NCBI GenBank assembly: GCA_051599415.1
Contig: AP039690.1
Span: 434,001-498,000, forward strand
Direction of reading: 5' to 3'
Length of the DNA stretch: 64,000 nucleotides
Source: Savitreella phatthalungensis
Taxonomy: Eukaryota
Shown piece by piece: positions 4,622 through 40,272 of this stretch. Every line of letters begins with the position of its first letter. The first letter of the stretch is position 1. The notes under the pieces were generated by a model. The model did not search any database and was not told the origin of the DNA. It saw only the letters and a list, made by a program, of their open reading frames with translations. The translations under genes and the position numbers were made by a program.

Positions 4622-5269
4622 TCATTCGTCGAGAAAGGCTTGTAGATCAGTAAGCTTAATCCTTCTTACGCCAGCTTGATCAAACTCGTCCTGAGATGTC
4701 TGTGTCCACGGCTTGATTCCGCGAACTGCTTCCTGGATCACCACTGTCTTGTATCCGCCAATTCGACTTGCATCAATAGCAGTATGGAAGACGCAGAAGT
4801 CATCAGCCAAGCCAACCACCGCTACTTTCCGGACCCCTTCGTCATCGAGCAATCCCTGCAATCGAGTCTTCTCAACCCCGAAGGCATCAACCAGCGCACT
4901 GTACGAATCTCTCTCGACATGATATCCTTTTCTGACAATTTCGGTGGTCGATGGCAGGCTGAGGGAAGCATGGAACTCTGCACCGCGAGTGTGCTGAATA
5001 CAGTGGTCTGGCCAGAGTGCTTGGTCGATAGTGGTGTCGTTGTGTGAGACTTGGACGGTGTCCTTGAACGGCTGCTTGCCTGGATGCGCTGAAGCAAAGG
5101 AGACGTGACCGGGAGGATGCCAATCCTGAGTCGCTACAACCACGTCCCAATTGACCGAGCTCAGCAGCCTGTTGATGACAGGAATCACGCTCTCACCATC
5201 GGGAACAGCAAGTGGACCATCTCCTAAGAAATCATACTGCACATCCACGATGATCAGTGCATTTGCCAT
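4622..5269 (-). CDS. PNC1: Nicotinamidase/pyrazinamidase (isochorismatase family)
   Basis: ALIIVDVQYDF, QDWHP..H.SF, LWPDHC, KG...DSYS and GLADDFCV motifs; ATG at 5269. Confidence 0.9.
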   Translation of the reverse strand: MANALIIVDVQYDFLGDGPLAVPDGESVIPVINRLLSSVNWDVVVATQDWHPPGHVSFASAHPGKQPFKDTVQVSHNDTTIDQALWPDHCIQHTRGAEFHASLSLPSTTEIVRKGYHVERDSYSALVDAFGVEKTRLQGLLDDEGVRKVAVVGLADDFCVFHTAIDASRIGGYKTVVIQEAVRGIKPWTQTSQDEFDQAGVRRIKLTDLQAFLDE

Positions 5270-6830
5270 CTCCTCCAATCCCTACACCAGGAGGTTCTGA
5301 AAGGACTAGATGGTTTTAACGGAAATTGATGAAGCTTCGAATGACGTATGGTTGCTGTAGAATGCTTCAGGTGTTTTGAAGAGTATTGCTTTGGTGAGTG
5401 ATCACATTGAACAATCTCGCAGGGAAACTGGAGATCAAATTCGACTGAAGACCGAGTTTAGAATGCCGCGGATAGATTGCGTTTAGATTGGTTGGATGTA
5501 AACACTGTCAACCTATACTCTTAACCTCCATGTATTTTCCAGGATAGACGAGGCCAGATTTCATTGACTTGATTTTGGTCGGCCGCTTGCGCTTGTTCCA
5601 AAAATAGACCAGCGGCTTCCAGTCATGGTCGAGAGGACGCATGGCTGAAACGCGTGAATTACATCGCGTTCTGCTCTGCGTGTCAAGTAGATAGATGATC
5701 TTGGGTCTCATTCGTACTAGGCTCTCGGAGATTTGAGGCATGCGGACCTGTGTATTAGGGGACCCATCGAGCTAGCTTTCTTCGATGTGAACGACTGAAG
5801 CATGAGCGAGAGACACGCACAGGTAAGTATGCAACAAGTCATTCATCCACTTCGGTCGTCTGTGCTGTTTGGCCCATTGCCAAATCACAGTCGAACGAGA
5901 CCAGATGAGATGAAATATGACATGAGATGATATGAGTTGAGATGAGAGTGAGACTGACAAGATTCCCTGCATCCAGTCGATCGTGTGGTCTGTCCCAGAC
6001 TATACAAGGTCTCTTCTCACGTCGATGATCTGATTCCCGACACCACGAGCATAGCAATGTACAAGATCACCGCGATCTTACGCGTCCATCACGTGGTACA
6101 CAAGCGTCTTCTCACATCGATCGCCCGTGCTCGTGTTCGTGCTTTCCAGATCGTGTGAGCAAGCTTGGTGCACCAACGCAGTGCAATCTGATTTCCGAAT
6201 CGGAGAGGCGGTGGGTTGTCTTCGCGTTAAAAGTCAGATACACAAGGATCCGAGCTAGAAACAAGGTAGCCTGGAGCAGTTCAGGAGAAAATCCAGAGGA
6301 ATTCTTTGGGAAAATAGAATTCGCCGATCTGCAGGAATACAATTCTATCCGTTCAAATGTATCTAAATTTAAACCGTAATAGAAGCACCACAGCAACAGC
6401 AAGGGCAACAGCAATAGCAGGACGAACAGCAACATGACTCGACATACGCATCCCAACACAGGCCACCTTCTCACCGCCATCCCAAATCCTCAGCAACGAG
6501 TCATAGCCTTGTCAATCATCACAATCTATACAGTCATTTGAACTGCAGCACTTCTCGTCGAATTGGCCTGCCCGACAAGACGTCCCTTCATAACAATCCA
6601 GGGCTCTTGGTCATCGCTTGTTCACGTGCGAGGTCCAGTGAGCCAACTGGGCTAGTGACGGAGGAGTGGCTCATAGGTGAGGGGCAGACTTGAATCGCAT
6701 TGCGCAAAGTCTCTCGCCCTTCTGGCCGCTCGCAGATCTCTGTTGCTCGCTGAAATCATTGAAGAAGTTCCCGACGTCAACATCTCCTGGCTCACGACCC
6801 CTTATTTTTCACCCTGATTCATCACACAAA

Positions 6831-8792
6831 ATGGCGAGCGACGACGGCAATAGCCACTATGGACTACCATCTCGCGTCCTCGCCGCCTTTCTCTCGCCTT
6901 GGTTTCTCCTCGTGGCCGCTGCGCTCATCCTCTTGCTCATGTATACTTTCTACTACAAGCCGAGATTACACCACGCATATCGCTCCTATCCTGATGCAGC
7001 CTACATCTACCTCACGCCACCAATCATCAGAAGGCGTAGATTCAATCGCGATCCGGTGGAATATCTCCGAAAGACTCGCGTAGACATGGCCATGTCGAAC
7101 ATCTACTGGCTCGACAGCATTGGCGATTATGGCATGTGTACACTCATCACCCAGTCAGACGCCCTCATTCACCAATTTCTAGCTACAGACAGCAAAGACG
7201 GTGTTTCATGGGATGCAGCGCTCAGGCACGTCTGGCGCGACCTATTCCGACCAGACTCGCCCTTCGGCAGGCGTTCTCAGTTCTACTACGCCTCTCGCTG
7301 GTGTCTTGTCAATGGCTTCTCTCGCGAGAAGACCAGTCTCGTCTCGAGCTATAGCGCAACAGTCGAGCGTGAAGCACTGCGCTGCTTGCACAATGCTAGC
7401 AACCAGGACGACCTGCTCGAGCTCGCTGATAGCGCAGTCTCTCGCTCTCTTCTGGCCATTATCTTTGGCACAGATTGTCAGCAATTCGAAAAACTAGCCA
7501 GCATCCTCGACAGCCTCAATCACTTGCTCGTTCGCACATCATCCAGATCCGATAGGAAGACCGCCATCCAGCTCGCCGATGAGTTCCGAGCCACGGTGCG
7601 CAGCCTCTTGCAAAATCAGATGAACAGCGATGTCGAAGCCCGAAGCGGTGGTGTAGGCGATGATTACCTCAGCTGGCTCCTGACAAATACACCGCAGATG
7701 CGTCAGGATGAGGACGGCAGGTCCAACGCAAACAGCCACAGCAATAATAACAGCGAGGCGGGAGGTAGTGACAGGGGCAGCAACACGATAGACGACAATG
7801 ACGAGGTGGAAAAGACTCGGCGTGAGCAACACCTTCTGCGCGATCTGCCAGATCATCTGCTTGTGACACTGCTGCAGACGCGGTTGCTCTGCGCGGTTGG
7901 TGTGCTTTGGAACGTCTACTCCGCCGCAACACTGGAGAACGCGGTCTCGCCTGACCCACTCTTGCTTGTTCGCAAGGCTCGGAAAGAGGTCCTGATTGGA
8001 TCGACCATCATTCCAAAGAATGCCTTTGTCGCCGTATCACCCGTGCTCGAGCGGCTCGAGGGAGGATACGAAGGCACCTCATCGGGATATCCTCGGGGCT
8101 CGACACCCGCCTCATCTATGCTCTTCTTCAACAATGGCCATTCACACAGCAATCCAAAGCGTGATCTCAGCTCTACAACAGAGCTTTCCCTGCTTACCTC
8201 GACGAACAGCTTGAATGATCTGACGCAGACAAGCGATACAGCAAGCACGGTTGATGGCTCTGCATTTGCATCTGTCAACCACTCTCGAAGCACCTCTTCC
8301 TTCGCTCCACTCCTCCGTCACAATCACTCGCGAAGGCAGTCGTCCGTCGCGGGTTTGTCGGAGATGGGCGGGCCTACGATTTCCGAAGCGGATTCCGCAG
8401 CCGACAGTGCCTTTGGCATTCCGAACGGTAGTCGCTCAGGCAGTCTTAGCGACGTTGACGAGCGGCACTACCGGTCAAAGCGAGGGTCTTGGACGCGACG
8501 CTACCCACAGGCGCATCTGATCTCCTTGGTCGTTGGTGCCGTCTCGACTCGGTTCTCGGATGCCTTGACCATCACCGGTTCTGCAAGCGTCCATCCGCGA
8601 TACCTTAGCGCTCGGGGTCTCTGGCTGCCTTTGCCGGACACCACCATCGCATGTGTCCGCCGCACGTCAAACAGTTCTCATGCTCCTCCGCGCCCAACGA
8701 GATCCTTGACGCCACCTGCCCCTGCAGCTGACCTGACAGGTCCCAACCCTAGCAACAAATCTGCAATCGTGGTAGCTGCGGTGGACGCATGA
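6831..8792 (+). CDS. Membrane-anchored, degenerate cytochrome P450-like (CYP51-like) protein lacking catalytic motifs
   Basis: N-terminal TM anchor, DPVEYLRK..NIYWL segment and LLVRKARKEVLIGSTIIPKNAFVAVSP (P450 beta-sheet-like). No K-helix ExxR and no FxxGxxxCxG heme motif; Ser-rich insertions. Confidence 0.55.
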   Translation: MASDDGNSHYGLPSRVLAAFLSPWFLLVAAALILLLMYTFYYKPRLHHAYRSYPDAAYIYLTPPIIRRRRFNRDPVEYLRKTRVDMAMSNIYWLDSIGDYGMCTLITQSDALIHQFLATDSKDGVSWDAALRHVWRDLFRPDSPFGRRSQFYYASRWCLVNGFSREKTSLVSSYSATVEREALRCLHNASNQDDLLELADSAVSRSLLAIIFGTDCQQFEKLASILDSLNHLLVRTSSRSDRKTAIQLADEFRATVRSLLQNQMNSDVEARSGGVGDDYLSWLLTNTPQMRQDEDGRSNANSHSNNNSEAGGSDRGSNTIDDNDEVEKTRREQHLLRDLPDHLLVTLLQTRLLCAVGVLWNVYSAATLENAVSPDPLLLVRKARKEVLIGSTIIPKNAFVAVSPVLERLEGGYEGTSSGYPRGSTPASSMLFFNNGHSHSNPKRDLSSTTELSLLTSTNSLNDLTQTSDTASTVDGSAFASVNHSRSTSSFAPLLRHNHSRRQSSVAGLSEMGGPTISEADSAADSAFGIPNGSRSGSLSDVDERHYRSKRGSWTRRYPQAHLISLVVGAVSTRFSDALTITGSASVHPRYLSARGLWLPLPDTTIACVRRTSNSSHAPPRPTRSLTPPAPAADLTGPNPSNKSAIVVAAVDA

Positions 8793-8902: not shown

Positions 8903-10357
8903 TTAGACTCGCTTGAGATGGACGCTCTTGAGCTTGACCCAGGCCTCGAAGCCAATAGATCCGCCCATGCTCGCTCCTCGACCAGAAAGCTTGTACCCGG
9001 TCCAGACGAGGGATGGATCTGGGTAGTCTGCCCTGTTGAGGAAGACGGTACCTGCATCGAGCTGAGCGCAAACCTCCTCCGCCTTCCCATCCAGATCCTT
9101 TGACCACACGCTCGCCGTCAGCCCAAAATCACTGTCATTCACCAACCTCACACCCTCAGCATCCCCACCATCCACCTTGATAATCGGCAACACCGGACCA
9201 AACGTCTCTTCCGTCATGACTCTCGCAGCTAGCGGTACGTCCACGAGGATTTGTGGTGTGACAAAATTGGTGTCTTCGTTGTCCAGTTGATGTGTCGGGA
9301 GGAGTGCTTTTGCGCCTCTTGCAAGGGCGTCTTGGATGTGTGCACGTGCGAGGTTTGCTTGGTTTCTGGAGACGCAGGGGCCTAAGGTGGTTGCGTTGTC
9401 TGCCGGGTCGCCTAGGACGTATGCTTTTGCTTCGGCGACACATGCCGCCACAAACGCATCGTACACGGCCGCGTCCACGTACACACGCTCCACAGCACAG
9501 CAGCTCTGTCCGCTGTTGAACATCCCACCATCCACAATCCCAGCAGCAGCCAACCCGACATCCGCATCACCACGCACCCAGCAACCATCCTTCCCACCCA
9601 ACTCCAGCGTCACTCCAGCATACCCTTTCCGAGGACCTCCAGGTCCATTGCTCCCGACAACAGCCCTCTCGACTGCGGTTCCGGCGTCGACGCTGCCTGT
9701 GAAGGAGATGTGGGTGAGATACTTGGAGGTGCAGAGGTTTTGTGTGAGGAGAGCTGGGTTGCCTATGTGTAGGTGCTGTAGGAGGTTCTGTGGGAGACCC
9801 GCTTCCGTGTACATGCGCGTGAAGGCCTCTGCGACGAGCGGCGTCTGTGGCGAGTGCTTCAGAATCACAGCGTTGCCAGCAACGAGCGCAGGCAGCACCC
9901 CATTGATCGTCACCAGCCAAGGATAGTTCCATGCACCAACCACCACAACCACACCCTTTCCGACCTTCACCACCTCACGGCGCAATCCGTCGCCTCCACT
10001 CGCATCTCCAGGCAGAGGCGACAGCGCTGACATCGCATGCGATAGCTGCCAACGGCCTCGTGCCACGGCAGTCGTGATCTCCGACAGGCAGTATCGGATG
10101 GGTCTGCCCATCTGGATAGAGATGTCTTTTGCCAGTGCATCTGCATCGGCTGTCAGGAGGTCGAGGAATGTAGAAGCGATGGCAATCCGTCGCTCGATCG
10201 CTTCACGGTCAAAGAACTTCCCGAGAGAGAGTGCTTGCTCCGCTTCGAATGCAGCCTGTGCGCGCTCGAAGCACGCCTCTATTTCAGAGACTGTAGCCTC
10301 AGGTCGTACAGCAACGACTGAGCCATCGTAAGGCGAGATTGTCTTGATCTCAGGCAT
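8903..10357 (-). CDS. NAD(P)-dependent aldehyde dehydrogenase
   Basis: WNYP, GNAVILKHS, FTGS, LELGGKD (catalytic Glu), FNSGQSCCA (catalytic Cys) and EETFGP. Confidence 0.95.
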   Translation of the reverse strand: MPEIKTISPYDGSVVAVRPEATVSEIEACFERAQAAFEAEQALSLGKFFDREAIERRIAIASTFLDLLTADADALAKDISIQMGRPIRYCLSEITTAVARGRWQLSHAMSALSPLPGDASGGDGLRREVVKVGKGVVVVVGAWNYPWLVTINGVLPALVAGNAVILKHSPQTPLVAEAFTRMYTEAGLPQNLLQHLHIGNPALLTQNLCTSKYLTHISFTGSVDAGTAVERAVVGSNGPGGPRKGYAGVTLELGGKDGCWVRGDADVGLAAAGIVDGGMFNSGQSCCAVERVYVDAAVYDAFVAACVAEAKAYVLGDPADNATTLGPCVSRNQANLARAHIQDALARGAKALLPTHQLDNEDTNFVTPQILVDVPLAARVMTEETFGPVLPIIKVDGGDAEGVRLVNDSDFGLTASVWSKDLDGKAEEVCAQLDAGTVFLNRADYPDPSLVWTGYKLSGRGASMGGSIGFEAWVKLKSVHLKRV

Positions 10358-10680
10358 TGCGGAGAGAGTGTGTGTCGTTCACGATGCTCTTTATCTATTT
10401 AAGTTGTCCTGATCTGCATGTGATGCATAGATACGTACAGTATACGTAGCCAAGGAGGCTAAGCGAGCGTGTGTGCATGTGATTGGATCATGCAAATTTG
10501 GGCCTCGCGGGATCCGCAATAGTTTCAGTCTGAGAACTTGAAGCACTGCTACGAACTGTAGAGCCAGTGGGTCCATCGAGCGAAAACACTCGTCGGTCTC
10601 ATGCTTATGCTTCCTTTGCCCTACAGGTGATATGTATGTCAACATGTAGATGTTGTCGTGAACGTCAGGTCGGTCCAATT

Positions 10681-11663
10681 TCAGTGCCCGAGTCCTGCGT
10701 TCTCCGGCACGAACGACCTGTTGTCTCCAAGGCTTGTGACGTAGGCACGTGTAAGACCACCGTCTACGAGGAAATCTGCGCCGGTGGTGTATGAAGACTC
10801 GTCGGAGGCGAGGTAGAGTGCGGCATACGCTTGCTCGATCGCTTCGCCGAATCTCCCTGTCGGCAAGTGCACCGTCCTCCGCTCCTTCTTCTCCCGCGTG
10901 TCGAGGAAGTCCTGGAGGAGCGGGGTATTGAGCGGTCCGGGGCAGAGGGCGTTCAGTCTGATGCCGTCTTTCGCATGCGTGATGGCCATCTCACGCGTCA
11001 TTGCCAGTACGGCACCCTTGCTAGCAGTGTACGCCAGTTGTGGCGTCGCAGCACCTACGAACGCCACCATCGACGCCGTGTTGATGATGCTTCCGCGCGT
11101 CTTTCCGTGAGCTAGCATACTCTTGATCGCGTACTTGCATCCAAACCACACACCCTTGACGTTGATGTCCATCGTGAGATCCCACACACGTTCCTCCGTC
11201 GTCAGGGCGTTGTCGTCGGCAGAGTGCATGATGCCGGCGTTATTGAACATGATGTCTAGACCGGAAGGCTGAAGCAGGGGGAAGGGCTGTGTCAGTTGTC
11301 GAGCAAGAGTAATTGCGGGATGATAAAGCTTACGAATTGCTCGTCTGCAAATGCGACCAGTTCAGCCACGTCCTGTTCCTTGCTCACGTCGCACTTCTTT
11401 GATTTGACGCTTTCTGCTGCGCCGGGGTGAAGTTCATGAACGCGCTTGAGCGCTTTTTCCAGAGCAGCTTCGTTCACATCTGCCAAGACAATCCTGGCTC
11501 CATGCTCGGCGAATAGGACTCTGTGTTCGTGGTCAGAGATTGAACAGGGTTTGAAGAAGTTCCAGGACTGGAAGGAGGAGACTTACGCTGACTCGAATCC
11601 AATGCCGCCTGCTGCGCCTGTGATGATGGCTACCTTATCTTGAAGTCTCGGTCCGACCACCAT
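10681..11663 (-). CDS. Short-chain dehydrogenase/reductase (Rv2857c/SCO1611-like); 3 exons: 11663-11587, 11520-11334, ~11268-10681
   Basis: Spliced product: MVVGPRLQDKVAIITGAAGGIG...FNNAGI...AYTASKG (YxxxK)...NALCPGPLNTPLLQ...FLVDGGLTRAYVT. Donors are GTAAGT and GTAAGC with CTGAC branch sites; the second acceptor could be 18 nt further upstream. Confidence 0.92.
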
Positions 11664-12063
11664 TGTTGGGGAAGGAGAATATGGTATGGATGCGAAGGTG
11701 TACAAGGTGCTTATGACTGTTGACAGATGGTCTACAGCCTGAACTAGAGAGTACGAGATGCTCGTCCTGTGGTGTTGAAGGACTGACCGTAGCACTAAAT
11801 GGATATCTTCTGCTGCGCAAGAATATATGTTGCTGATAAGGAAAATTCAATCTAGCGTAATGAATTCCGCAGCGTTGGCAAAGAAAGCCTAATTCAGCAT
11901 GCAGAACATATGTCGAGCAGTCGGGTGGAGCGTTGGGAATGAGTCAACGAGGTACACCTGCGACGAGCATCGGCAGCAGTAGTCAAAGGTCATGCGGAAG
12001 GAGGCTAGGTGCAGTCAGTTGACCTGTCAGTCTGTGTTATACATACACTTCATGCATATATAC

Positions 12064-12822
12064 CTATTCGGTCCTCCTGAATACAGCGATGAGATCCTTC
12101 TTGCTCATCTCAAGATCGAATGACTTGCCTGGCTTTTCCCGGTAGATCCGCTTGAAGCCTTGTGACAATAGTAGCTCGTCATAGAGCTCTGTGGTGAGTG
12201 AGAACGGCGGTCCACCTCCGTGACCAGCGTCTAATGGGTGCTGCAGCGTGATGAGTACACCTCTAGGAGCAATCACTTCGCTCATCCGTCTGGCCCAATC
12301 GGGACGACGACTGGGTGGAAGCGCACACAAGAACGTATAGTCGTACACCAGATCGTACTTCTTCCCTGTGCTCCATGATTGGGTCTCGTCGAAAAAGTCA
12401 CCTAGCACGACAGATGCATCTGTGGGTGATGCATCATTCGCACTCGCAGCTGATGTCGAAGAATCTGTAGCTTCATCCCCTTTTCGCTGCTGCTGTTGTT
12501 TGGCAAAATACTCTGCTGCAGCTTTGACTGCTCCTTCGCTGATCTCCAGGCCAACTGCCTTGTGGAAGCCATACTTGCGTAGGTTGTTTGCAAGAAAGTA
12601 GACATCGTAGCCACGGCCACAGCCTGGGACAAGCGCAACTCTTCCATTGTCACTTTGATCGTCAAACAGCTTGACCTTGTCATGCTCAATCAAATCTACA
12701 AGCGCTGGACTTGCCTGTGATCGATCCCAAGGAGTTTGACTGTCTTCCCATAACTTTGCCCATACGTTGCCATGCTGCTTAGCATCGACATCAGAGAAGC
12801 GCGATGAGAGTGGTGTTGGCAT
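12064..12822 (-). CDS. SAM-dependent thiol/halide methyltransferase (TPMT family)
   Basis: WAKLWE..TPWDR..ASPAL, ALVPGCGRGYD, DLVYDYTFLCALPP..R..WA.RM and GPPF motifs. Confidence 0.88.
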   Translation of the reverse strand: MPTPLSSRFSDVDAKQHGNVWAKLWEDSQTPWDRSQASPALVDLIEHDKVKLFDDQSDNGRVALVPGCGRGYDVYFLANNLRKYGFHKAVGLEISEGAVKAAAEYFAKQQQQRKGDEATDSSTSAASANDASPTDASVVLGDFFDETQSWSTGKKYDLVYDYTFLCALPPSRRPDWARRMSEVIAPRGVLITLQHPLDAGHGGGPPFSLTTELYDELLLSQGFKRIYREKPGKSFDLEMSKKDLIAVFRRTE

Positions 12823-13321
12823 GAGAGCAGACTGTTGGGGGCTGTCTCTTAGGCCGAGTAAGTGATAGCGTGAATGACCGCGTAGATGGCTGCGTAGAAG
12901 ACTGTCTGAACGAGTGCGTCATTCAAGGTGTAAATTAAGTGGATCATGTGGAGAACGATCGATGATCGATTCAACAGCTGAAATTGCTTGCTGCACGGAT
13001 GCTCGATCAATTGAAAGGAAAAATCCCGATCGAGTCATTGACTGAGTGGACTGGCCACAGAAGATCATATCAAAACAGGTGTAAATTACTCTAACGTTGA
13101 CTGACATCTACGCGTCCTGATCAAAGCAGGAGACGCGACGATACTTCCTCAACTACGCCCATCAACAGCGACAAGCTCTTCGACACGACCACGAGCAGAT
13201 CGCTCGTCTTGCATCATCAGTTCTGCATGGGAAGTCTCACGCTCTGGTCATCTACATCCAATCGCAACTAAGGTCTCTCTATAACCTGCTGATAGTCGCG
13301 TTTGTTACCTAAACACTGAGT

Positions 13322-15700
13322 ATGTCGGAGCAACCTATTCCGAACTCTTCTCCGGATGGTACAGAGCCTGCTCTCGCCCAGGAGACTCCTGTTCGCGCTC
13401 CAATGCACAAGATCACACCAGCAAAGACTCATTCGACCGGAAAGTGGGCTACCAACGTCCAGGGCAAGCGTGTCAGACTCGATCCAGGCGCAGGCGTAGA
13501 TACGCCAGGCCTCATCAGACAGCAGTCTCATCCACTTGCAGAGGCCATCACGGTTGCAGACACAAACACAGACGCAGATGACTCCTTAGCGCCAACCAGT
13601 CCCGCGCCGGCTCAAGAAGAACAAACCTCGCAGATCAGGAGCCTTTCTCAGCCCGAGCAGGCCTCTGATGATGGTACCGGGGTTCCATCTAGCACAAGCT
13701 CGAAGCTCTTTGACTTCTCACCCGTGCCGCCTGAGAAAGTAGGAAGGATGCTACCGCCCATGACGCTTCCCTCGAAAGACTCAGACCACCAGTCGTCCTC
13801 TTCCTCCCCATCAAAGCCTAATCTGACGCTTGAAGAACTCGGAAAGAACAACTTCGGCGCCGGTACGCCTCACGAAATTCCGAGTCACGATCGAGGAGAT
13901 ACTCATGACATTATCGTCGATTCCCACTCAGTCAGCAACGGAGCTCCGGCTCGCGAATCAATCTCGGCCCATGTCTGGAGCGGCATCGAATTCTCGGAAA
14001 TGCTCCCGGAAGACCTCACCGGAGAACGTCCTGCTGTTGAAGCTCTTGAGCCTGCCGAGGCTAACGCAGCAGCACTAAAAAACGAGCAAACCTCACAGAG
14101 GCCCGAAGAGAAGGAAGCATCAAAACTGTCGAGCATTGCGCCAACAAACCCGCCCGCGGCACAAATCTTGTCGGAGCAATCCGTGGACGACAGCATTACA
14201 GCTGCAACACAACTGAACGATATATATGTTCCCGAGCAAGAAATGCTCGACGCAGAGTTCCTAATGGGCGTGGATGATGTTATGCAAGATCCTGCCATGT
14301 TTGATCCTCTGCCCGCGCACGAAAGCACAGTCGCGCCAGTCACTACCCCTGCAAAGCCGAGTCAATCGTTGAGCACAACACCCGCTCGCCAATCGACAGG
14401 ACAGGCCAACAGCCTATTAGCCAGCACATCGAAGACGCCCAACACGCCACAGCATCTGATTTCCCATACAGAGCAATCAGTGAGACAATCGAACGTGCGC
14501 ATCTCGAAAGACATGCCAACGGACGCGATTGTCGCAGCTGATGCCAATCAATCCGTTGTGTTTCAGACTCCGACTCGTGGATTCCAGGCAGCGACACCGT
14601 CACAGCTCGGCTCGTCTACTCGCAAGCTTGTTCCACGCGAGGAGTATTCCTTCAGGGAAGAACTGCTTGATGACGTACCTGTCTACGACGACAGCGTTGC
14701 TGAAGAACTTGAGAAGCTGCATGCCGAGCAGCTGCATGCCGAGCAGACGCGCGGTCGCCGACGTGGCCGGCCGCCTGGCTCAACACAACGAAGCCGCAAG
14801 TCCACAAACGGCAATAACGTTGCAAACACTCCGGTTTCAGGCGACGCTTCTCAGAAACCATCCGTCACTGGCTCCGCAAGGAAACGTGGTGCTCAAGCCA
14901 AAGGCACGCCTGCTGCGTCGCAGACGCCCTCGAAGCGAGGCACAAAGCGTTCCAGAGATGCCGACGATGACGAGGAGAATCAAGCTCCTGGTGATGGTGA
15001 AGCTGAGGAAAGCAGACCGGCCAAGAAAACTCGAGGACGCCAGTCTACGAATACACCAAAGCGGGGATCCGGAGACACTGATCGCACCGATGAGATTGCA
15101 GAGGAAGAGGCAACGCCTGCGGACCCACCCAAGCGTGGTCGCACGCGCGGAAGACCTCTCAAAGCACAGACCAGTGAAGCGCCAAAGCGCGCGACTCGTG
15201 GACGCAATGCCGTCAGGAACTCTCCCGAACCAGCTGCCAGTGGCACGAGAAGGTCTACGCGCGGCAAGACACCTGTCGACGAAGACGTCTCTGATAGCGC
15301 GACGACGGCTGCACCAGCGACGAAAGGTCGACCGAAGCGCGGTTCAAAGTCTGCCACTGCCGCCACCTCAGAGCCATCGCCATCGGCCCCTGCTCCTTCG
15401 CAGAGTAATTCAACGAAGGGCAGGGCGAAACGCGCCACACAGAAGGCAAGCGCTCGCGGAGCACGTGCATCGAAATCGCCCACACCTGAATCAGCTGACG
15501 ATCCAGCTTCCGCTGATGAAGAAGATGTGGAGAGTGAGCGCGAGACAAAGCCGCTGGATACAATCGCCGAAGAATCAACATCCACAGCATCACAAGCGCA
15601 GTCCGACGGTGCACGCGCCACTAGACGCGGTCGTTCAGCCAATGCAGCGACGGTAGCTGTTGTGGTGCCGACCGGGAAGCGGTCACTCCGATCACGGTGA
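13322..15700 (+). CDS. Low-complexity, probably nuclear protein with AT-hook motifs
   Basis: 792-aa Ser/Thr/Pro-rich ORF; basic C-terminal half with RRGRPP, RGRPLK and KGRPKR motifs. Confidence 0.7.
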   Translation: MSEQPIPNSSPDGTEPALAQETPVRAPMHKITPAKTHSTGKWATNVQGKRVRLDPGAGVDTPGLIRQQSHPLAEAITVADTNTDADDSLAPTSPAPAQEEQTSQIRSLSQPEQASDDGTGVPSSTSSKLFDFSPVPPEKVGRMLPPMTLPSKDSDHQSSSSSPSKPNLTLEELGKNNFGAGTPHEIPSHDRGDTHDIIVDSHSVSNGAPARESISAHVWSGIEFSEMLPEDLTGERPAVEALEPAEANAAALKNEQTSQRPEEKEASKLSSIAPTNPPAAQILSEQSVDDSITAATQLNDIYVPEQEMLDAEFLMGVDDVMQDPAMFDPLPAHESTVAPVTTPAKPSQSLSTTPARQSTGQANSLLASTSKTPNTPQHLISHTEQSVRQSNVRISKDMPTDAIVAADANQSVVFQTPTRGFQAATPSQLGSSTRKLVPREEYSFREELLDDVPVYDDSVAEELEKLHAEQLHAEQTRGRRRGRPPGSTQRSRKSTNGNNVANTPVSGDASQKPSVTGSARKRGAQAKGTPAASQTPSKRGTKRSRDADDDEENQAPGDGEAEESRPAKKTRGRQSTNTPKRGSGDTDRTDEIAEEEATPADPPKRGRTRGRPLKAQTSEAPKRATRGRNAVRNSPEPAASGTRRSTRGKTPVDEDVSDSATTAAPATKGRPKRGSKSATAATSEPSPSAPAPSQSNSTKGRAKRATQKASARGARASKSPTPESADDPASADEEDVESERETKPLDTIAEESTSTASQAQSDGARATRRGRSANAATVAVVVPTGKRSLRSR

Positions 15701-15755
15701 GTATCTAGCTTGCGATTGTATGATTATCAATTTCCGCCTGATATCTCTCTCGTTC

Positions 15756-17318
15756 TTAGACCGTCTCGATATACCGTGCTACTTCCCATTCCGTGACTGC
15801 CTGCTGCCAGAGCTTGAGCTCGTGGTGCCTGGTTGCTGCGTAGTGATTGACAAAGCCGTCACCAAAGATCTCTCTGGCGATCGACCCTTCACGCGCAAAT
15901 AGCCCAACGGCCTCCCTCAAATCCTTCGCCAGCCGAATCGATCCCGGACGCGACCCCGGATCGCCCTTGTGACCGAGCGGTGGCAAATCAATCTTCAACT
16001 TCATCTCGATACCTCGTAGTCCTGCGCCGAAGATGGCTGCGAGAGCGAGGTGTGGGACGGTGTCTGCGCCTGGAACGCGGACTTCGATTCTGGTTGCCTT
16101 TTTGGCGGTTGCTGGGTCGTTTGCTGGGGAGATGAGTCTGAGTGATGCGAGTCTGTGCTCGAGTCCCCAGGAGACGTCGACTGGCGCCCAGAAGTTCTCG
16201 ACAAGGCGCTTGTACGAGTTGATGGTCGGTGCAAAGACCGGCATCAAGTCAGGCAGACCAGCGAGCACGCCAGCGAGGAAGTGTCGTCCTACTGCGGAAA
16301 AGTTCTCGAGATCTTTGTAGTGAATCCCACCGACCACAGTCGCCTCGTCCAACGCCTTCTCCTCGGCATCGCCAGATGACCTGTCACGGTAGAAAAGGTT
16401 GGATCCGCCTGTCAACGAGGCTAGTGAGACATGCATGTGTCCTGAGTTGCCACTGAGCCCTTGGACCGGTTTTGCCATGAAGCTCGGAGTTACGCCGTGC
16501 TGGAGACCCACGTTCTTGCACAGGAACTTGAACATCGCTCCGCGGTCGGCCATCCGCTCTAGCTCACAGAACGCGAGAGCGCCCTCGTACACACCGGGAC
16601 CAGTCTCCGTGTGCCAGCCCTCGAGAGGACAGTCAAAGAGCATAGCACACTTGTGAATGTCATTGAAGTACTTGCGGTACTTTACGTCGTGGATCCGCGC
16701 AAGTGAGTAACCAAAGTTGCCCGGCGTGATTGGTGTTAGGTCACGCCCGCGCTTCTCAGCCAGCGTCTGTGGTGTTTCTGCGAAGTTGAAGAACTCGTAC
16801 TCGAGTCCGGCCATGCCCTTGAAGCCGAGCTTGGTAGCCCGATTTGCTTGCCTCCGAAGGACGCTGCGCGGGTCAGCTGAGATCGGTTCCCCGGTAGACG
16901 GGTCATTGAAGTGGAGGAGGAAGAAGGGAGTGTTGTCGTCCCAGGGCAACCTGCGGAAGGTGGACAGATCGATCGTAGCGTCAATGTCTGCGAAACCGTT
17001 CGGTCCATCTGAGGTCGGACCTGCACCCATGGCTGCGATCACGCCTTCGTCGTACGTCTTGTCGTGCATATCCCAGCCAAACGTCACACTGCAGAATCCG
17101 AACGAGCCGCTTTTCAGCGCAGACTTGAATTTATCAAACGACATCAACTTTCCACGCACGATCCCATCGACATCCAAACCACCGACCTTGACGCCAGTCT
17201 GTTGAGCACCTCGATGCTCGAGCCAGGCAACTATGGCGTCTATTTGATGTGCTGTCGGAGGGTTGTCCGATGTTGGGGGATCATCCGTACCATTGGGAAC
17301 GGCAAAGACGCTTGCCAT
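15756..17318 (-). CDS. Glutamine-synthetase-like gamma-glutamyl-amine ligase (GlnA4/PuuA-like)
   Basis: DVDGIVRGK, GLEYEF, HTETGPGVYE, FMAKP..GNSGHMHVSL, APTINSYKRL and RIEVRVPGAD. The canonical GSI FDGSS and PGYEAP are replaced by FCSVT and ENFWAP. Confidence 0.9.
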   Translation of the reverse strand: MASVFAVPNGTDDPPTSDNPPTAHQIDAIVAWLEHRGAQQTGVKVGGLDVDGIVRGKLMSFDKFKSALKSGSFGFCSVTFGWDMHDKTYDEGVIAAMGAGPTSDGPNGFADIDATIDLSTFRRLPWDDNTPFFLLHFNDPSTGEPISADPRSVLRRQANRATKLGFKGMAGLEYEFFNFAETPQTLAEKRGRDLTPITPGNFGYSLARIHDVKYRKYFNDIHKCAMLFDCPLEGWHTETGPGVYEGALAFCELERMADRGAMFKFLCKNVGLQHGVTPSFMAKPVQGLSGNSGHMHVSLASLTGGSNLFYRDRSSGDAEEKALDEATVVGGIHYKDLENFSAVGRHFLAGVLAGLPDLMPVFAPTINSYKRLVENFWAPVDVSWGLEHRLASLRLISPANDPATAKKATRIEVRVPGADTVPHLALAAIFGAGLRGIEMKLKIDLPPLGHKGDPGSRPGSIRLAKDLREAVGLFAREGSIAREIFGDGFVNHYAATRHHELKLWQQAVTEWEVARYIETV

Positions 17319-34439: not shown

Positions 34440-37400
34440 TCAAGGGTCCGCTGCAGCGGTGAACGCTTCGGACACGGCTGCAGCTGTCGGTGCTTGCGGC
34501 GATTGAGGCTCTGTGATGGTTTGTGGTGCCGGAGTTTGTGCATCACTGTACTTTGGTGACGCAGGCATGTCTTCCATCTGAACATCAGCTTCATCTGACT
34601 GCAATCTTGATAGCTCGCCCGCATGGAGCTCTGCAGCTGGTAGTAGCCCATGGGCGTTCTGCGACGCTGCGCTGGTTGCTGTCGTCTTGTCATTGTCACG
34701 AGCGGTCTCTTCCTTCTCGGTGTCTGCTGTCGAAGGCTGGATGGCCTCGTTTCCGAGACCGGAGTCTGCTCTGAGTCGTGCTGACATTCTGGCGGACGAG
34801 TTCGGAGCGGCCACTGGATTGTTGCTTCCAGAGACTTCGTTCGCAGAGCCTTTCGGCTTGCAAAGTGCGAATGCGCGTGCCAGCATGTCCTTCCGTGCCA
34901 CTTTCGCCAGCTTCAGCTTCGCTTCCCTGAGCCTTGACCTTGCACTGCGACTCGATGGAGCAGCTGCCGGAGTGACAGGTGTGTCGTCCGCGGTAACAGT
35001 ATCATTTGCACCGGTTACGGCCGGAGGGCCAGGCGACGCGGTTGGTGCAGTGATCGTAGCTTCGATCTTGATCTCCTCCTCTGCCGGCGGCGCCTTGACC
35101 AGTCCTAGTTGGAAATCCGTCTGATCTTGTACCCACATATACATGGTCACATACATGTCTAGGATGAGGTTGTCGGCCTCATTTGTTTCTGAAAGACCGC
35201 CGTTGACTTTGCGCATGTCGTAGAGGTCGCGCATGGTCTTGAGGAGCGTTGATCGGGCGAAGGTCGGCAGGAGTGCTGCATTGTCGAGACGGGTCGCAGC
35301 TTGCTTGAAGTCTTCAAGCATGATGATATTCTCGAGCTCGAGATGAAGACCCGACTCGATCTGCTCCTGTTCAGCAATGTAGTCGAGATAGCGGTCGAAT
35401 GACTCGTCCCAGACCTCCTTGTGATCCCAAATGTTGGACGTGTCGCGCCGAATGCGTCGAAGGAAGCTGCGAATACAATCGACAGCGTCCGCGCCCTCCT
35501 CGCCCGCCGCAGCCGCTCCGGCTTGAGGGTTACGTGCTCTGAGGAGAAGATCCATGTAATAAAGACTGTACTTCTCCATGTAGATGAAGTGCTTGCCTGG
35601 CCGCTCGAAGGCTGTGCGCCAGATCGTCAGCACGCTTGTGACAGGGCCTTTTTGGGTCATCAGTGACTCGAAGGTCTCTCTTGCGAGCTGGAGCTCGCGT
35701 TTGGCAACGATCAGATCGGGAGCCGCTATGGAACGCTCAAGGTGAAGAGTACTCAGTCGATAGGTTGGTCGGTGATGCCAGTGCTTTTTGTCTGCGTTGC
35801 GCATGTTCTGCAGGGCTTTCTGCAGGAGGTCGAGGGCGGTTTGGTCGTCTTCGGGAACAGACCCATAAGCAGGCAGATTTGCCAGCCTTTGCCGCGCTTC
35901 TGATTCAGTCAGACAGCCGTTACGCAGGTATGCATGGATTGCAGAGACGTGGTTGTAGTGTGGCTCGAGGACAAGCATGCCGTCTCCGATTGGTTTTGTC
36001 GGGGCATTTTCAGCAGCTCTGCGCATGTAAGCCAGAACTTTCGAAGGCTCGACGCCCAGCCGACGACCGACTTTGCCAAGGTGCATATGGCATTGCCAGA
36101 TCTCCGTGCATCGCATGTTAGCACGACGAAGACACGTGTAGGCGAGTCTGAGGAGCTCTCGCTCTGTGGCTGCCGACTTTGTGCGAGAGCCAGGGTCGTT
36201 CTGACCGTCCTGTGCAAATACAAGGTCTTCGCGATCGAAAGCAGCCATCGATAGAGGGCACTCGACCACGTCCACCAGAAACACACCTAACTCGAAATGA
36301 AGATCCGCGAGCTCTCGCTCGATGTGCGGTTTGGTCTCGTCTGCTTGGATGATGTTAAGCGTGTTACTGATGGCCATGAGGTAGCAGAGGAGTGCGCGGC
36401 GCTGGAAGCCGACAATATCTTCTTGAAGAGAGACGATATATTCGCAGGTTGTCGAGAGATTTTCTTCGGCGGAAGTAGCGTACAGGCGGGCGAGCTGGAT
36501 CCAGGACTCGTGTTTTGCAGGGTTGAGCTGAATATCTAGCTCAAAGTATGCGGAGGCTTCTGAGATGTCCTCGAGAGCACGCGCATTTGGCGTGGCCAGT
36601 TTTGCGCGGGACTTGAGCTGACCGAGATATGCACGACCGATAGTACGTGCCAACTCTCTGGCCGGTCCCGCAGCCGCGTCATCCACATCTTTGAAGCCGA
36701 CTTGGCGTAGTGGGAGTGTCAGCTGCCCGACGACTGCTGCGGCTATCGCTTCGCGTGTGAGGTCTGCTGCAAAGAAGTCCTCGAGCACTGCGCCGTTGGT
36801 TGCGTATACGGGATCCTGCTTGAGCTCTTCTTGGAGAGCCTCATGGACAAGCTCGAGCGCGTTGCGCAGATCTTGCTTCGGCATAATGAGTCCGTCTGCT
36901 CTTTGCGGAACAAAGGTTGTCAGGAAAGGCAGAATGCGGCACGCTTCTTTGGCTGAGATGGAACTTGGCTCAGTGGCGTGGTCCCACGGATAGAATGCAC
37001 CGCTCTCAAAAGAGATGCCGTACCGACAGTGTAAGACTTGGATGAGATCATGCTCATTGTCTGCACTGTTGATGCGGTAAATTTCGTCCTCGCACAGCTT
37101 GAGAAAGGCGCCGTCCGCAAGTGCACAAAAGCCTCGCGATCCAAGCTCGTCGTGAAGAACGTAGAGTAGGTTGCCGAGTTCCTCATTCGCCTGCTGTGTC
37201 GGTAAACATGACAGTGTAAGCGTCGCCGTAAGCTTATAGAAGACGACCCACACCTGGAGAGAGAAGTGTTGCAAGTTATCTCTAAATCGAGCGAATAGAG
37301 AGGAGTCCTTTGAGCCGTGATCGTCTCGCTCGGCGCGCAGATCTTCGTCGTGGAAGAAGATGACACTGAATGATGCTAGACTGACAATGACCGAAAGCCT

Positions 37401-39881
37401 ATCCCTGAGGGTATCGTTGTTGGTATCGGACTCATTGCTGCTGACTTCTCGACGGGTGTAAATGACAGGCAAGGTTCGAAGAATCTGGTGAATGACGAAG
37501 AGGAGGAGATCCTTGCGCTGAGCGACATCGAGTGAAGCTGCCTGATCCGCAGAAATGGCTCGCAAGAGGATCTTTAGAATTTCGTATGCTGTCGTGACAG
37601 CAAGTGCATCTTGATCCGTGGTGATCAGCGCATCCATGAGCATTGTCCATATCCGCAGAGAGAACCTCCAGGGTGCATCTGCGACGTACTTCTGAATTAG
37701 CGCGCGGTTGGAGTCTTTGTCCTTCTGGGCGTCGAGAAGCACAGGTCGTAGTTCCTTGACGACTGCCGCGTGATTGCCTTCGGCGTCGGCATGGAAAACT
37801 GTGGCGAAGAAGTCACCGGTGCGGAATTTTGAGATCTCGATGAGCAGGCGCTCTCCGGAGAGTGTGGAAATGAAGGTGGTGTTGGGCATCGCTATGCGGA
37901 CTGTCGCGAGGAGATCTGAGGATTGCGACTCGAGCTCTTGATATTGACGGAGTACGCAATCTGAATCGAGGCCGGAGAGCTGTCCTGCCACTATGCAAGA
38001 CCACCGATGACGGAGTAGAAGGGCATCAAGTGTATCCGTAGATGAAGCAGCAGGACGATCCTGCTGAAGCCTGTGGAGGTCATCTACCTTGCGCTGCCAT
38101 GCCTCTGCGCGACTGAGCGCAGGAGTTGGCGACTGGTCTTCGTCTTTGCGCGCTTCAATGATAGCCTCATCTATAAGGAGCTCGACCGCAGCCTGCAGTA
38201 CTGATAGCACAGATTGAAATTGCGCTGTAGCGCTGTGCTCTGTCAGGCTGTCTGCGAGACGCATCAGAGAATCCTGCTCGACGTGAATGAGGTCTGTGAC
38301 GAGGTCCTTCAGTTGTGCAGGCCACGCCATAGTGAGGTAGGACGGTGTTTCATGGGCGCCGCCGAGAATGGTCTGTAGGTATACTGCGCTGACGTGTGTA
38401 TTGTGGGTGGGCTTACCTGCGAGCGTGCGTCTTAAATGCTCGAGATCCGCATCGGACATGGAGACCGAGGGCAAAGAGGTGTCCGTCGATGCAAAGTTCA
38501 GCATCATATTCCGCTCGATTGTCTGGGTGGCATGCTGAGTAGCGTCGTCCGTCTGGGCTTGTGCGCGAGCACACAAGTCATCGGACCACTCGTGCAACAA
38601 CATGCTGCTGAGCACATTTTGGACAGCGTCGAACGCACCGTGAGCATCGGCGTCGTGCAGTACGACGTTGCGGAAGACAGCGCTGAAGTCGTCACATTTG
38701 ACGTCGACACTGGTAAGCCTGTCGTTGACAGCTTCTAACAGCTGCGACGGGTTCTCCGTGTCGTGAGCGATCCGCGCATCGACCGAGTTGCGCCGCTGAC
38801 GCTTAGATGCGCGCAAACCACTGTCCTCTGTGTCGGTCGAGTCGACGCCGCGCTTGGTAGTCGGCGATCGAGTTCCGAGTCCGTTTGCCCGTGCCTCCTT
38901 CCTATCTCTGCGCGGCGAGCCATTCAAGTTAGCAGGGCTATCTGCTCTTGAGTGGTGCGATTTGCTGTCTGGTGAGGTCGGCACGGCAGATCCCGAGGAA
39001 GACTTCGCTGGAACGTCGACGATAATGCAGCATGGCTGTGGTGGCATTGTACGGCGTAGAATGCGCTGGCCTTCGAGTAGGGATCTGCCAAAGCGATACC
39101 AACTGAGGTGGTCCAAGTCGATCGAGCTAGTATGTAAAGCTGGAGCAGACGACACTGGCACTGGCGGGAAGTGCTTCGGCAGCCAGGACAGTGTATCGCG
39201 ATGGGGTGGTCCGTTCTCTCCGTTGACCTCGATTGCTGGGAGTATTGCTAGTCCACTCTCGTCGCCAAGCCTCGAACAGACTGTCCGCAGACCTGCTAGA
39301 ACAGGCTGTAACTCAGCGTCTCTGTCTTCGTCCACAAAGAAACTCCTGACTTCATTGGCCTTGACTGCATCTAGCTCGTTCTCGAGGGTAGCTCGAACTG
39401 CTTTATCTAGCGATAGGTATGTGGCGAGACTGTGGACAGTCTGCCAGAGCCTTCTGTCTGACGGGTCAAATGACAAAGCAGCCGCATATTCCTGGAGCAC
39501 GTGTAGAAGCTTTGCGTAGAGGAGTTCTGGGGGCGACAGGAGGTGTGGTAGATCACGACGTGTGGATTGAAGGAGCGCGGTGCCGTAGTTCTTGAAAGCG
39601 AGGTACGGCAATCGGCTTCCGGCGATCGCGTCTCCTCCGAAAACGTCATCCTCATCACCGACAGGCTCTTCGTCTGGACCATCTTCGATCAGGTCCTGGA
39701 CAATCTCACTAGCGAGCAGGGCCTCGTATCCGTGGAGAGCTTCATCGAGACTACCTGCAGCGTGGAGACGAAGGGTCTTCTGGTAATGCTTCAACGCTTC
39801 CTCTAGCTTGACTTCACGAATGTGCTCATCGATGTCGTCTTCTGTCTCCTCGATCCGGTTGACCGGCGTGAACGAGGACAT
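34440..39881 (-). CDS. HIR3: HIR histone chaperone complex subunit Hir3/Hip3 (Cabin1-like)
   Basis: 1813 aa; N-terminal REVKLEEALKHYQKTLRLH and YLAFKNYG, plus LEPHY, DKKHWHHRPTYR and IWRTAFERPGKHF. Confidence 0.88.
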   Translation of the reverse strand: MSSFTPVNRIEETEDDIDEHIREVKLEEALKHYQKTLRLHAAGSLDEALHGYEALLASEIVQDLIEDGPDEEPVGDEDDVFGGDAIAGSRLPYLAFKNYGTALLQSTRRDLPHLLSPPELLYAKLLHVLQEYAAALSFDPSDRRLWQTVHSLATYLSLDKAVRATLENELDAVKANEVRSFFVDEDRDAELQPVLAGLRTVCSRLGDESGLAILPAIEVNGENGPPHRDTLSWLPKHFPPVPVSSAPALHTSSIDLDHLSWYRFGRSLLEGQRILRRTMPPQPCCIIVDVPAKSSSGSAVPTSPDSKSHHSRADSPANLNGSPRRDRKEARANGLGTRSPTTKRGVDSTDTEDSGLRASKRQRRNSVDARIAHDTENPSQLLEAVNDRLTSVDVKCDDFSAVFRNVVLHDADAHGAFDAVQNVLSSMLLHEWSDDLCARAQAQTDDATQHATQTIERNMMLNFASTDTSLPSVSMSDADLEHLRRTLAGKPTHNTHVSAVYLQTILGGAHETPSYLTMAWPAQLKDLVTDLIHVEQDSLMRLADSLTEHSATAQFQSVLSVLQAAVELLIDEAIIEARKDEDQSPTPALSRAEAWQRKVDDLHRLQQDRPAASSTDTLDALLLRHRWSCIVAGQLSGLDSDCVLRQYQELESQSSDLLATVRIAMPNTTFISTLSGERLLIEISKFRTGDFFATVFHADAEGNHAAVVKELRPVLLDAQKDKDSNRALIQKYVADAPWRFSLRIWTMLMDALITTDQDALAVTTAYEILKILLRAISADQAASLDVAQRKDLLLFVIHQILRTLPVIYTRREVSSNESDTNNDTLRDRLSVIVSLASFSVIFFHDEDLRAERDDHGSKDSSLFARFRDNLQHFSLQVWVVFYKLTATLTLSCLPTQQANEELGNLLYVLHDELGSRGFCALADGAFLKLCEDEIYRINSADNEHDLIQVLHCRYGISFESGAFYPWDHATEPSSISAKEACRILPFLTTFVPQRADGLIMPKQDLRNALELVHEALQEELKQDPVYATNGAVLEDFFAADLTREAIAAAVVGQLTLPLRQVGFKDVDDAAAGPARELARTIGRAYLGQLKSRAKLATPNARALEDISEASAYFELDIQLNPAKHESWIQLARLYATSAEENLSTTCEYIVSLQEDIVGFQRRALLCYLMAISNTLNIIQADETKPHIERELADLHFELGVFLVDVVECPLSMAAFDREDLVFAQDGQNDPGSRTKSAATERELLRLAYTCLRRANMRCTEIWQCHMHLGKVGRRLGVEPSKVLAYMRRAAENAPTKPIGDGMLVLEPHYNHVSAIHAYLRNGCLTESEARQRLANLPAYGSVPEDDQTALDLLQKALQNMRNADKKHWHHRPTYRLSTLHLERSIAAPDLIVAKRELQLARETFESLMTQKGPVTSVLTIWRTAFERPGKHFIYMEKYSLYYMDLLLRARNPQAGAAAAGEEGADAVDCIRSFLRRIRRDTSNIWDHKEVWDESFDRYLDYIAEQEQIESGLHLELENIIMLEDFKQAATRLDNAALLPTFARSTLLKTMRDLYDMRKVNGGLSETNEADNLILDMYVTMYMWVQDQTDFQLGLVKAPPAEEEIKIEATITAPTASPGPPAVTGANDTVTADDTPVTPAAAPSSRSARSRLREAKLKLAKVARKDMLARAFALCKPKGSANEVSGSNNPVAAPNSSARMSARLRADSGLGNEAIQPSTADTEKEETARDNDKTTATSAASQNAHGLLPAAELHAGELSRLQSDEADVQMEDMPASPKYSDAQTPAPQTITEPQSPQAPTAAAVSEAFTAAADP

Positions 39882-40272
39882 GCTCAGCGACCGATTTATC
39901 TACACGGCTTGCGCCTATCACTCGCGCATGGGAACTGCGCAATAATTCTACACGAGCAGGTATAGCCCAAGCATCTGTCAGCGTAATCAGCGTCACTGTA
40001 TCTATGAGCTCTTGAGGTTGATCATCAAGTGTTATAGATGGTGATGATGTATGTCAGTGTGCATCCTTGTAAAGGGAAAGTAGAGTAGATGTGCGTCTTG
40101 AATACTGTGCATCTTCAAAGGTGATCGAGTGACTGCCGTGAAGAGTGTTTGTTTGATCACGTGTATGACATCCATTAATACAGGGGGACATCATCCTTGA
40201 ACGGCGTGAAAGTATCTAACGCCATCCACAAGCTAAGGCCCTCTCAGAGAGGGCAGTAACGATCAGTCCCCG

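Follow-up and report, generated by a model that had tools for sequence, protein, structure and literature searches.

We analysed a 64-kb window of the Savitreella phatthalungensis genome (the whole stretch of 64,000 nucleotides, contig AP039690.1, positions 434,001 to 498,000) and focused on three genes of its minus strand, which encode a glutamine synthetase (GS)-like gamma-glutamyl ligase, a short-chain dehydrogenase/reductase (SDR) and an aldehyde dehydrogenase (ALDH). The trio probably encodes the enzymes for the first three reactions of a route that breaks down a small amino alcohol, most likely ethanolamine, by gamma-glutamylation. In the first step, the ligase would use ATP to couple the amine to the gamma-carboxyl group of glutamate, and the amine would be masked. 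The SDR would then convert the alcohol group left free in this gamma-glutamyl amide into an aldehyde, and the ALDH would oxidise the aldehyde to an acid, which would be gamma-glutamylglycine in the case of ethanolamine. A hydrolase encoded elsewhere would finally free glutamate and an amino acid (glycine from ethanolamine). It may be a dedicated enzyme of the C26/GATase type or a general gamma-glutamyl-cleaving enzyme. The reactions in the fungus, the amine on which they act and the joint working of the three genes are inferred from the observations below, which concern gene structures, intact catalytic residues, relationships of the three families and the operons of their bacterial relatives.

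The earlier note on this DNA had placed the three genes together on the minus strand, and open reading frames (ORFs), translations and Pfam matches confirmed all three. The ligase gene (P0002, 17318-15756) was a single ORF of 520 aa, stop included, with a Gln-synt_C match at E 4.9e-73. The SDR gene consisted of three exons. Exon 1 (11663-11587) ran from the ATG to a GT donor, bore the TGAAGGIG cofactor motif and agreed with the N-terminus of the deposited protein P0122. Exon 2 (11520-11334) had the donor gtaagc and the acceptor cag, matched adh_short_C2 at E 1.1e-07 and also agreed with P0122. Exon 3 (11268-10681, stop included) carried the Ser-Tyr-Lys residues and the subfamily motifs and matched adh_short_C2 at E 4.4e-45. 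Both introns had GT..AG ends in the DNA, and the codon split between exons 1 and 2 was completed by base 11520, the first base of exon 2. The spliced model was identical to P0122 (PYCC9005_000820, 283 aa), and the SDR gene now carries two introns. The ALDH gene (P0001, 10357-8903) was a single ORF of 484 aa with an Aldedh match at E 3.3e-104, and 323 bp separated the SDR stop from the ALDH start. Catalytic residues were intact in all three proteins, and the order and orientation of the genes were those of the bacterial SDR-type operon.

The SDR shared its subfamily with SDRs from the GS-SDR-ALDH operons of bacteria, actinobacteria included. In an alignment of five fungal SDRs and five bacterial operon SDRs, the motifs GAATPQLAYTASKG, NALCPGPL.T.LL and VDGG...AYVT were invariant or nearly so, and the subfamily motifs quoted in the earlier note were present. 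S154, Y168 and K172 were invariant, and TGAAGGIG and NNAG were present, as in a classical SDR with a Ser-Tyr-Lys site. The exon-3 part was 69-87% identical across fungal phyla, and chytrids, Zoopagomycota, Mucoromycota, Basidiomycota and Ascomycota were named among the matches listed. A scan of bacterial and archaeal genomes gave 79 bacterial loci, bearing the labels of about eight phyla, where the same part was 66-73% identical. Over the full length, identity was 56-64% at 78 of these loci, and the remaining locus, a partial match, reached 69%. In a tree of 45 hand-chosen rows, the fungal SDRs formed one clade (16 rows, support 99) nested among the bacterial operon SDRs. The best NCBIfam model for the window SDR was PRK06057, at 283 bits against a cut-off of 404. 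Two bacterial operon SDRs, L010 and L057, also stayed below this cut-off (319 and 310 bits). The model is narrower than the operon-SDR subfamily. The cut-off was passed in none of 14 control genomes.

The neighbours of the bacterial SDRs were then counted. A GS-like gene lay upstream in 56 of 68 loci, at most 150 bp away in 41 of the 56. Loci with 1.5 kb or more of upstream sequence were counted here, and the gene had to lie on the SDR strand no further than 3.5 kb away. An ALDH lay downstream in 41 of 68 loci (within 2.5 kb, in loci with at least 1.6 kb of downstream sequence). Twelve of these ALDHs were of type B, at least 38% identical to the fungal ALDH, and 29 were of the less similar type A. 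Both flanks were long enough at 59 loci, and 7 of these had neither a GS-like gene nor an ALDH. Pfam searches of 61 ORFs from nine loci showed GATase/Peptidase_C26 hydrolases, HAD phosphatases, an amino-acid permease, an MFS transporter and a glycine-cleavage H gene as further partners. These operons are of the type published for the gamma-glutamyl ethanolamine pathway, which has a ligase, a dehydrogenase, an aldehyde dehydrogenase and an amidohydrolase in the cluster descriptions of PMC6529630 and PMC10132767. Some loci departed from this layout. A GS, C26 and SDR operon of a SAR324 metagenome-assembled genome carried a tungsten-type aldehyde:ferredoxin oxidoreductase (AFOR_N and AFOR_C, L026:10559-12439) in place of the ALDH. 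An IS200-type transposase (L010:8766-9227) separated the ligase and the SDR in Dyadobacter, and one ALDH was spread over two ORFs (L002:10525-11954), possibly by a frameshift or an assembly error.

The ALDH also led to gamma-glutamyl operons. The catalytic Cys and Glu were read in the GQSCCA and ELGGKD motifs of its translation. The fungal ALDHs were 43-54% identical among themselves and 40-45% identical to the ALDHs of bacterial operons. In a tree of 37 rows, where fungal relatives were taken from the best 120 listed and other bacterial ALDHs were sampled narrowly, the fungal clade (11 rows, support 95) had as its sister a clade of 11 bacterial rows (support 98), with a joint support of 99. 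The sister clade consisted of type-B ALDHs that came exclusively from gamma-glutamyl operons, both from the SDR kind and from a second kind with an iron-type alcohol dehydrogenase (Fe-ADH). Fungal relatives among the matches listed were from Ascomycota and Basidiomycota. The PuuC model of NCBIfam scored the window ALDH at 191 bits against a cut-off of 850.

The ligase was examined at the residue level, with the numbering of E. coli GlnA and with the poorly aligning D50 region excluded. The metal, ATP and glutamate residues E129, E131, E212, E220, G265, H269, H271, R321, R339, R344, E357 and R359 were all conserved. The flap residue Glu327 was replaced by Trp in 9 of 9 fungal ligases and, among the 22 other bacterial GS-like sequences of the alignment, in all but L039 (Phe) and PuuA (Tyr). 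In addition, Tyr179 was replaced by Phe and Asn264 by Ser or Pro in the fungal and the Fe-ADH-operon ligases, and the window ligase had Ser at 264. In its discussion of the flap position, the paper on FluG (PMC6478659) describes Trp in the gamma-glutamyl ligase PA5508 and in FluG, where it is unable to replace the role of the flap glutamate. The ligase could alternatively be an ordinary ammonium-assimilating glutamine synthetase isoform, to which the neighbouring dehydrogenases would be irrelevant. Its database name, 'glutamine synthetase', and its complete set of metal, ATP and glutamate residues would fit such an isoform. However, the Trp at the flap position makes a true glutamine synthetase unlikely, and the changes at 179 and 264 also speak against it. 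The GlnA model of NCBIfam gave 179 bits against a cut-off of 429 (GGputSyn, 134 against 650), and in the trees the ligase lay among GS-like ligases encoded in operons and well away from E. coli GlnA. We consider an ammonium-assimilating role very improbable.

Several observations weigh against the proposed route or against its assignment to ethanolamine, and the first concerns the origin of the ligase. The earlier note had read the cluster as a mirror of the actinobacterial glnA4 operon. The window ligase shared 29-34% identity with the SDR-linked ligases, against 37-46% with a second bacterial clade. The closer relatives were found by a search of 1.84 billion representative sequences, with labels assigned by BLAST, and some bore the source names Collimonas, Glaciimonas, Verrucomicrobiota and Paceibacterota. 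A scan of the order Burkholderiales gave matches to one such relative at E 1e-60 or better in 54 of 301 genomes. Twenty of these loci were examined, with ligases 37-45% identical to the window ligase, and 80 metagenome loci gave 37-46%. The fungal and the Fe-ADH-operon ligases had the FGWD motif in common, along with Trp327 and Phe179. A FastTree tree of 157 rows and an IQ-TREE quick tree of 48 hand-chosen rows both split the two ligase types. The 11 fungal rows fell together (support 100) within the Fe-ADH-operon clade, which had 27 rows and support 99, and the 14 rows of SDR-linked ligases made up a clade of their own (support 99). When the fungal and the SDR-linked ligases were constrained together, a group named after inspection of the tree, the constraint lowered the log-likelihood by 247.6 units and was rejected (approximately unbiased p value, p-AU, 4.9e-54). 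An orthologue of the SDR-linked type was excluded by the separate clades, the lower identity and this test. A ligase of the GlnA4 type is therefore not supported either, in so far as S. coelicolor GlnA4, which is assigned there only indirectly, is of the SDR-linked type.

Solved structures gave a similar picture. The best matches of the fungal ligase, though weak, were PDB 11zs and 5dm3, at 161 and 154 bits. The same entries scored 487 and 415 bits to the ligase of the Dyadobacter operon and 208 bits to a Burkholderiales Fe-ADH-operon ligase, and they belonged with the SDR-linked clade. The entry 5dm3 is presumably the ethanolamine ligase of C. salexigens (Csal_0679), which the literature search did not confirm. 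The structure entry 9WRM of M. tuberculosis GS4, named in PMC13740247, was not among the matches of the PDB searches run with the ligase queries. The ligases of different fungi were 49-59% identical. Two very long proteins among the representative sequences, P0362 (4424 aa) and P0427 (2757 aa), were matched by the GS-like query in six and three separate stretches, which indicates several GS-like modules per chain. A GS-like protein of a Gregarina sp. data set (P0383, eukprot) grouped tightly with the bacterial metagenome locus L188 and is probably bacterial contamination of the eukaryotic data set.

The operons of the fungal-type ligase in bacteria contained, by Pfam, the GS-like gene, Fe-ADH, Peptidase_C26/GATase or M81, and ALDH. 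Partners were counted on the same strand within 6 kb downstream of the ligase, in loci whose downstream sequence reached 4.5 kb or more (42 of 80 metagenome loci and 20 of 20 Burkholderiales loci). Fe-ADH was found in 32/42 metagenome and 19/20 Burkholderiales loci, ALDH in 28/42 and 17/20, C26/GATase in 20/42 and 8/20, and M81 in 0/42 and 4/20. None of the four was found in 9/42 and 1/20 loci. In two Burkholderiales loci (L133:11958-13412 and L134:12015-13457), an M81 (MlrC-like) metallopeptidase occupied the usual place of the C26 hydrolase, which suggests a non-homologous replacement of the last step. A fungal-type ligase stood beside an SDR of the kind in the window in only one of the 80 metagenome loci (L156, SDR 46% identical) and in none of the 20 Burkholderiales loci. 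The ligase was thus of the Fe-ADH-operon type, the SDR was of the other operon type and the ALDH occurred in both, so that the set was a mosaic. Given the two operon types, with L156 alone among 80 loci, the fungal trio mirrors no single bacterial operon. Transfer of one whole operon from bacteria is not favoured, because such a ligase and SDR were paired in 1/80 and 0/20 loci. The scheme of protection followed by two oxidations was supported. Each protein grouped with proteins of operons that hold a GS-like ligase, an alcohol dehydrogenase, an ALDH and in some cases a hydrolase, and the scheme fits this grouping, but its ligase is not of the SDR-linked type.

The bacterial Fe-ADH-operon clade has an uncharacterised amine substrate, and this raises the question of whether ethanolamine is the right amine. 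The same chemistry may act on another amine with an oxidisable alcohol (3-aminopropanol, alaninol, 1-amino-2-propanol or serinol) or on a broader set of amines, with ethanolamine not being the physiological substrate. The ligase lay outside the SDR-linked clade that holds 11zs and 5dm3, and the contexts of its own bacterial clade varied, with Amidohydro_1 in L123 and GNAT in L218 as well as M81 in L133 and L134. However, the SDR was very close to the SDRs of operons that are read as ethanolamine operons, and type-B ALDHs were present in both operon kinds. In addition, on a metagenome contig, one ORF fusing EutB and EutC of ethanolamine ammonia-lyase (L164:6407-8605) adjoined an operon with a fungal-type ligase. 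These results made another physiological substrate unlikely, though a serious candidate, and ethanolamine is retained as the preferred substrate of the proposed route.

Linkage in fungi was judged from contig sizes, locus tags and accession order. In Savitreella itself, the cluster was interrupted between the ligase and the SDR by two unrelated-looking genes, a methyltransferase of the TPMT family (12822-12064, minus strand; Pfam TPMT, E 4.1e-32) and a low-complexity ORF of 792 aa (13322-15700, plus strand), which was rich in Ser, Pro, Lys, Arg and Thr, had no Pfam match and was convergent with the ligase gene. In Protomyces lactucae-debilis, the SDR (ORY83605) and the ALDH (ORY83606) were consecutive on one contig, but the ligase was on a separate contig. 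Saitoella complicata and S. coloradoensis had the ligase and the SDR three genes apart, as in Savitreella, with the ALDH about 90 genes off on the same contig. Saitoella too had two genes between the ligase and the SDR. The SDR match P0126 and the ALDH match P0243 were each from an assembled contig of 4,531 bp, presumably the same one. Further away, the ligase and the ALDH were on differently sized contigs in 8 of the 8 species common to both match lists (Agyrium rufum, Pseudovirgaria, Phylliscum, Claussenomyces, Cylindrodendrum, two Thermothelomyces and Geosmithia), although small contigs in this comparison were compatible with adjacency and one of the eight rested on a multi-member cluster. 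Dimargaris verticillata and Trichomonascus ciferrii each had their ligase and SDR on different contigs. Among the fungi compared, the complete trio was linked only in Savitreella, and linkage in parts was kept only within Taphrinomycotina. Pairs stayed linked in Protomyces (SDR-ALDH) and Saitoella (GS-SDR), and the genes were dispersed in more distant fungi. Since different pairs survived, the arrangement appears to be an old one of Taphrinomycotina that was broken in different ways, and not a fungi-wide cluster. The order GS-x-x-SDR-ALDH was probably the ancestral state of Taphrinomycotina and was best kept in Savitreella. We regard the co-location as more than chance because of the bacterial operons and the partial synteny in related fungi, with no chance probability computed.

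These results also bear on the possibility that the trio is no functional unit. In that case, the genes would encode three independent enzymes in an inherited order, and the SDR or the ALDH may serve other substrates. The loss of linkage in most fungi examined and the two unrelated genes inside the cluster would agree with this, as would the far higher conservation of the SDR (in its exon 3) than of the ligase or the ALDH, which could mean a separate, more constrained role of the SDR. On the other hand, all three families have relatives among the partner genes of bacterial operons, and two different pairs stayed linked in separate lineages of Taphrinomycotina. Gene dispersal is normal for fungal pathways and is no argument against joint function. 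We consider independent enzymes improbable, and a joint function in the proposed gamma-glutamylation route is preferred.

Besides the interrupted cluster and the dispersed genes, three further points weigh against the proposed route. None of the three window proteins reached an NCBIfam equivalog cut-off. No gamma-glutamyl hydrolase (C26/GATase, M81 or formylglutamate-amidohydrolase) was found by Pfam in 51 ORFs of the window, and tblastn of the window gave no match either, with a query set of one M81 peptidase and five C26/GATase hydrolases from bacteria that contained no formylglutamate-amidohydrolase. The earlier statement that the window has no gene for such a hydrolase agreed with both searches. 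In Magnaporthe, knockouts of two extra 'GLN' genes, which may or may not belong to the ligase family, were without a growth or virulence defect in the part of PMC8229676 that describes them, where no amino-alcohol test appeared. An isochorismatase-family ORF (4625-5281, minus strand) was considered as the missing hydrolase and was dropped, as it was of the nicotinamidase/pyrazinamidase type (NCBIfam PRK11609, 169 bits against a cut-off of 174). Two long open frames, at 6681-8789 (plus strand, 703 aa) and 34443-39899 (minus strand, 1819 aa), had no Pfam match at E 1e-4. The remaining genes of the window were ordinary housekeeping genes.

The spread of the families was followed among the best matches listed. 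By source names, the ligase family occurred in Glomeromycotina (Funneliformis), Kickxellomycotina (Dimargaris and Ramicandelaber), chytrids (Podochytrium and Phlyctochytrium), budding yeasts (Wickerhamiella and Trichomonascus) and many Pezizomycotina. The three families are old in fungi, and those of the ligase and the SDR extend to chytrids and zygomycete lineages. Phylogenies of the three proteins had been proposed as a check, and in the trees built here, each fungal family was monophyletic and grouped with proteins of bacterial gamma-glutamyl operons. Each of the three families looks bacterial in origin, and the suggestion of a bacterial source was found plausible. Acquisition from bacteria before the fungal radiation would fit, since the fungal ligase and SDR clades lie within bacterial diversity and the fungal ALDH clade has a bacterial sister clade. 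The range of the ligase and the SDR from chytrids to Dikarya and the identity of about 60% between the fungal and bacterial SDRs suggest a conserved and so far unassigned part of the nitrogen or phospholipid-headgroup metabolism of fungi.

A broader proposal would extend the route to all fungi. They may have a bacterial-derived route from ethanolamine to glycine via gamma-glutamyl intermediates, gained before the crown radiation, with Taphrinomycotina keeping the operon order as a cluster. The ethanolamine would come from phospholipid turnover or from the environment. We put this forward tentatively, as a possibility that may well prove wrong. If true, thousands of fungal annotations as 'glutamine synthetase', 'glucose 1-dehydrogenase' and 'betaine/succinate-semialdehyde dehydrogenase' would be misnamed parts of one pathway. 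Should the gamma-glutamylation reading of the trio hold, a great many misnamed fungal genes would gain a testable function, fungal metabolic models would gain a way out of ethanolamine towards glycine, and the case would be one of an old transfer of pathway parts from bacteria to fungi. Should that reading be wrong, the finding is an inherited gene order among three ordinary enzymes. The earlier note knew of no characterisation in fungi. Literature searches, supplements aside, likewise gave no account of the pathway in fungi or other eukaryotes and led to bacterial or archaeal work only.

The trio was compared with known systems. The cluster SCO1610-SCO1615 of S. coelicolor, which contains GlnA4, has the same proposed steps, in which a ligase, a dehydrogenase, an aldehyde dehydrogenase and a hydrolase lead to glutamate and glycine (PMC6529630). 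The scheme of SCO1611, SCO1612, SCO1613 and SCO1615 was as printed in the pathway part of that paper, where the GlnA4 step alone is demonstrated and the later steps are predicted. Unlike that cluster, the fungal genes are intron-bearing, form separate transcription units, are split by two genes and are without a linked hydrolase, regulator or permease. The ligases also appear to differ, as the fungal one is outside the SDR-linked clade. In Phaeobacter sp. MED193, the genes MED193_10026-10056 encode a ligase, a gamma-glutamylethanolamide dehydrogenase, a gamma-glutamyl-aldehyde dehydrogenase and an amidohydrolase and are induced by phosphatidylethanolamine, according to the account of this cluster in PMC10132767. 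Clusters of the Phaeobacter type have a TRAP transporter and a hydrolase of the formylglutamate-amidohydrolase type, neither of which was seen in the window.

The bacterial operons of GS-like, Fe-ADH, C26 (or M81) and ALDH genes hold the closest bacterial relatives of the fungal ligase, and some carry a type-B ALDH. They differ in that the alcohol dehydrogenase is of the iron type and not an SDR, and the hydrolase is encoded within the operon. Chromohalobacter salexigens presumably has, like Phaeobacter, an ethanolamine gamma-glutamylase cluster of the proteobacterial kind. The Puu pathway of E. coli (PuuA, PuuB, PuuC and PuuD) shares the logic of gamma-glutamyl protection, oxidation, an ALDH step and hydrolysis. 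However, its substrate is putrescine, and PuuB is an amine oxidase rather than an alcohol dehydrogenase. PuuA and PuuC were distant from the fungal proteins, with long separate branches in the ligase and ALDH trees.

In fungi, the comparison is with FluG of A. nidulans (PMC6478659). That paper likens FluG to SCO6962 and PA5508, ligases of polyamines or arylamines. FluG is a gamma-glutamyl ligase resembling GS type I, with no reported GS activity, and it has Trp at the flap position like the window ligase. However, the 865 aa of FluG include a fused amidohydrolase at the N-terminus, and FluG has a developmental role, whereas the window ligase, with its 520 aa, stands alone.

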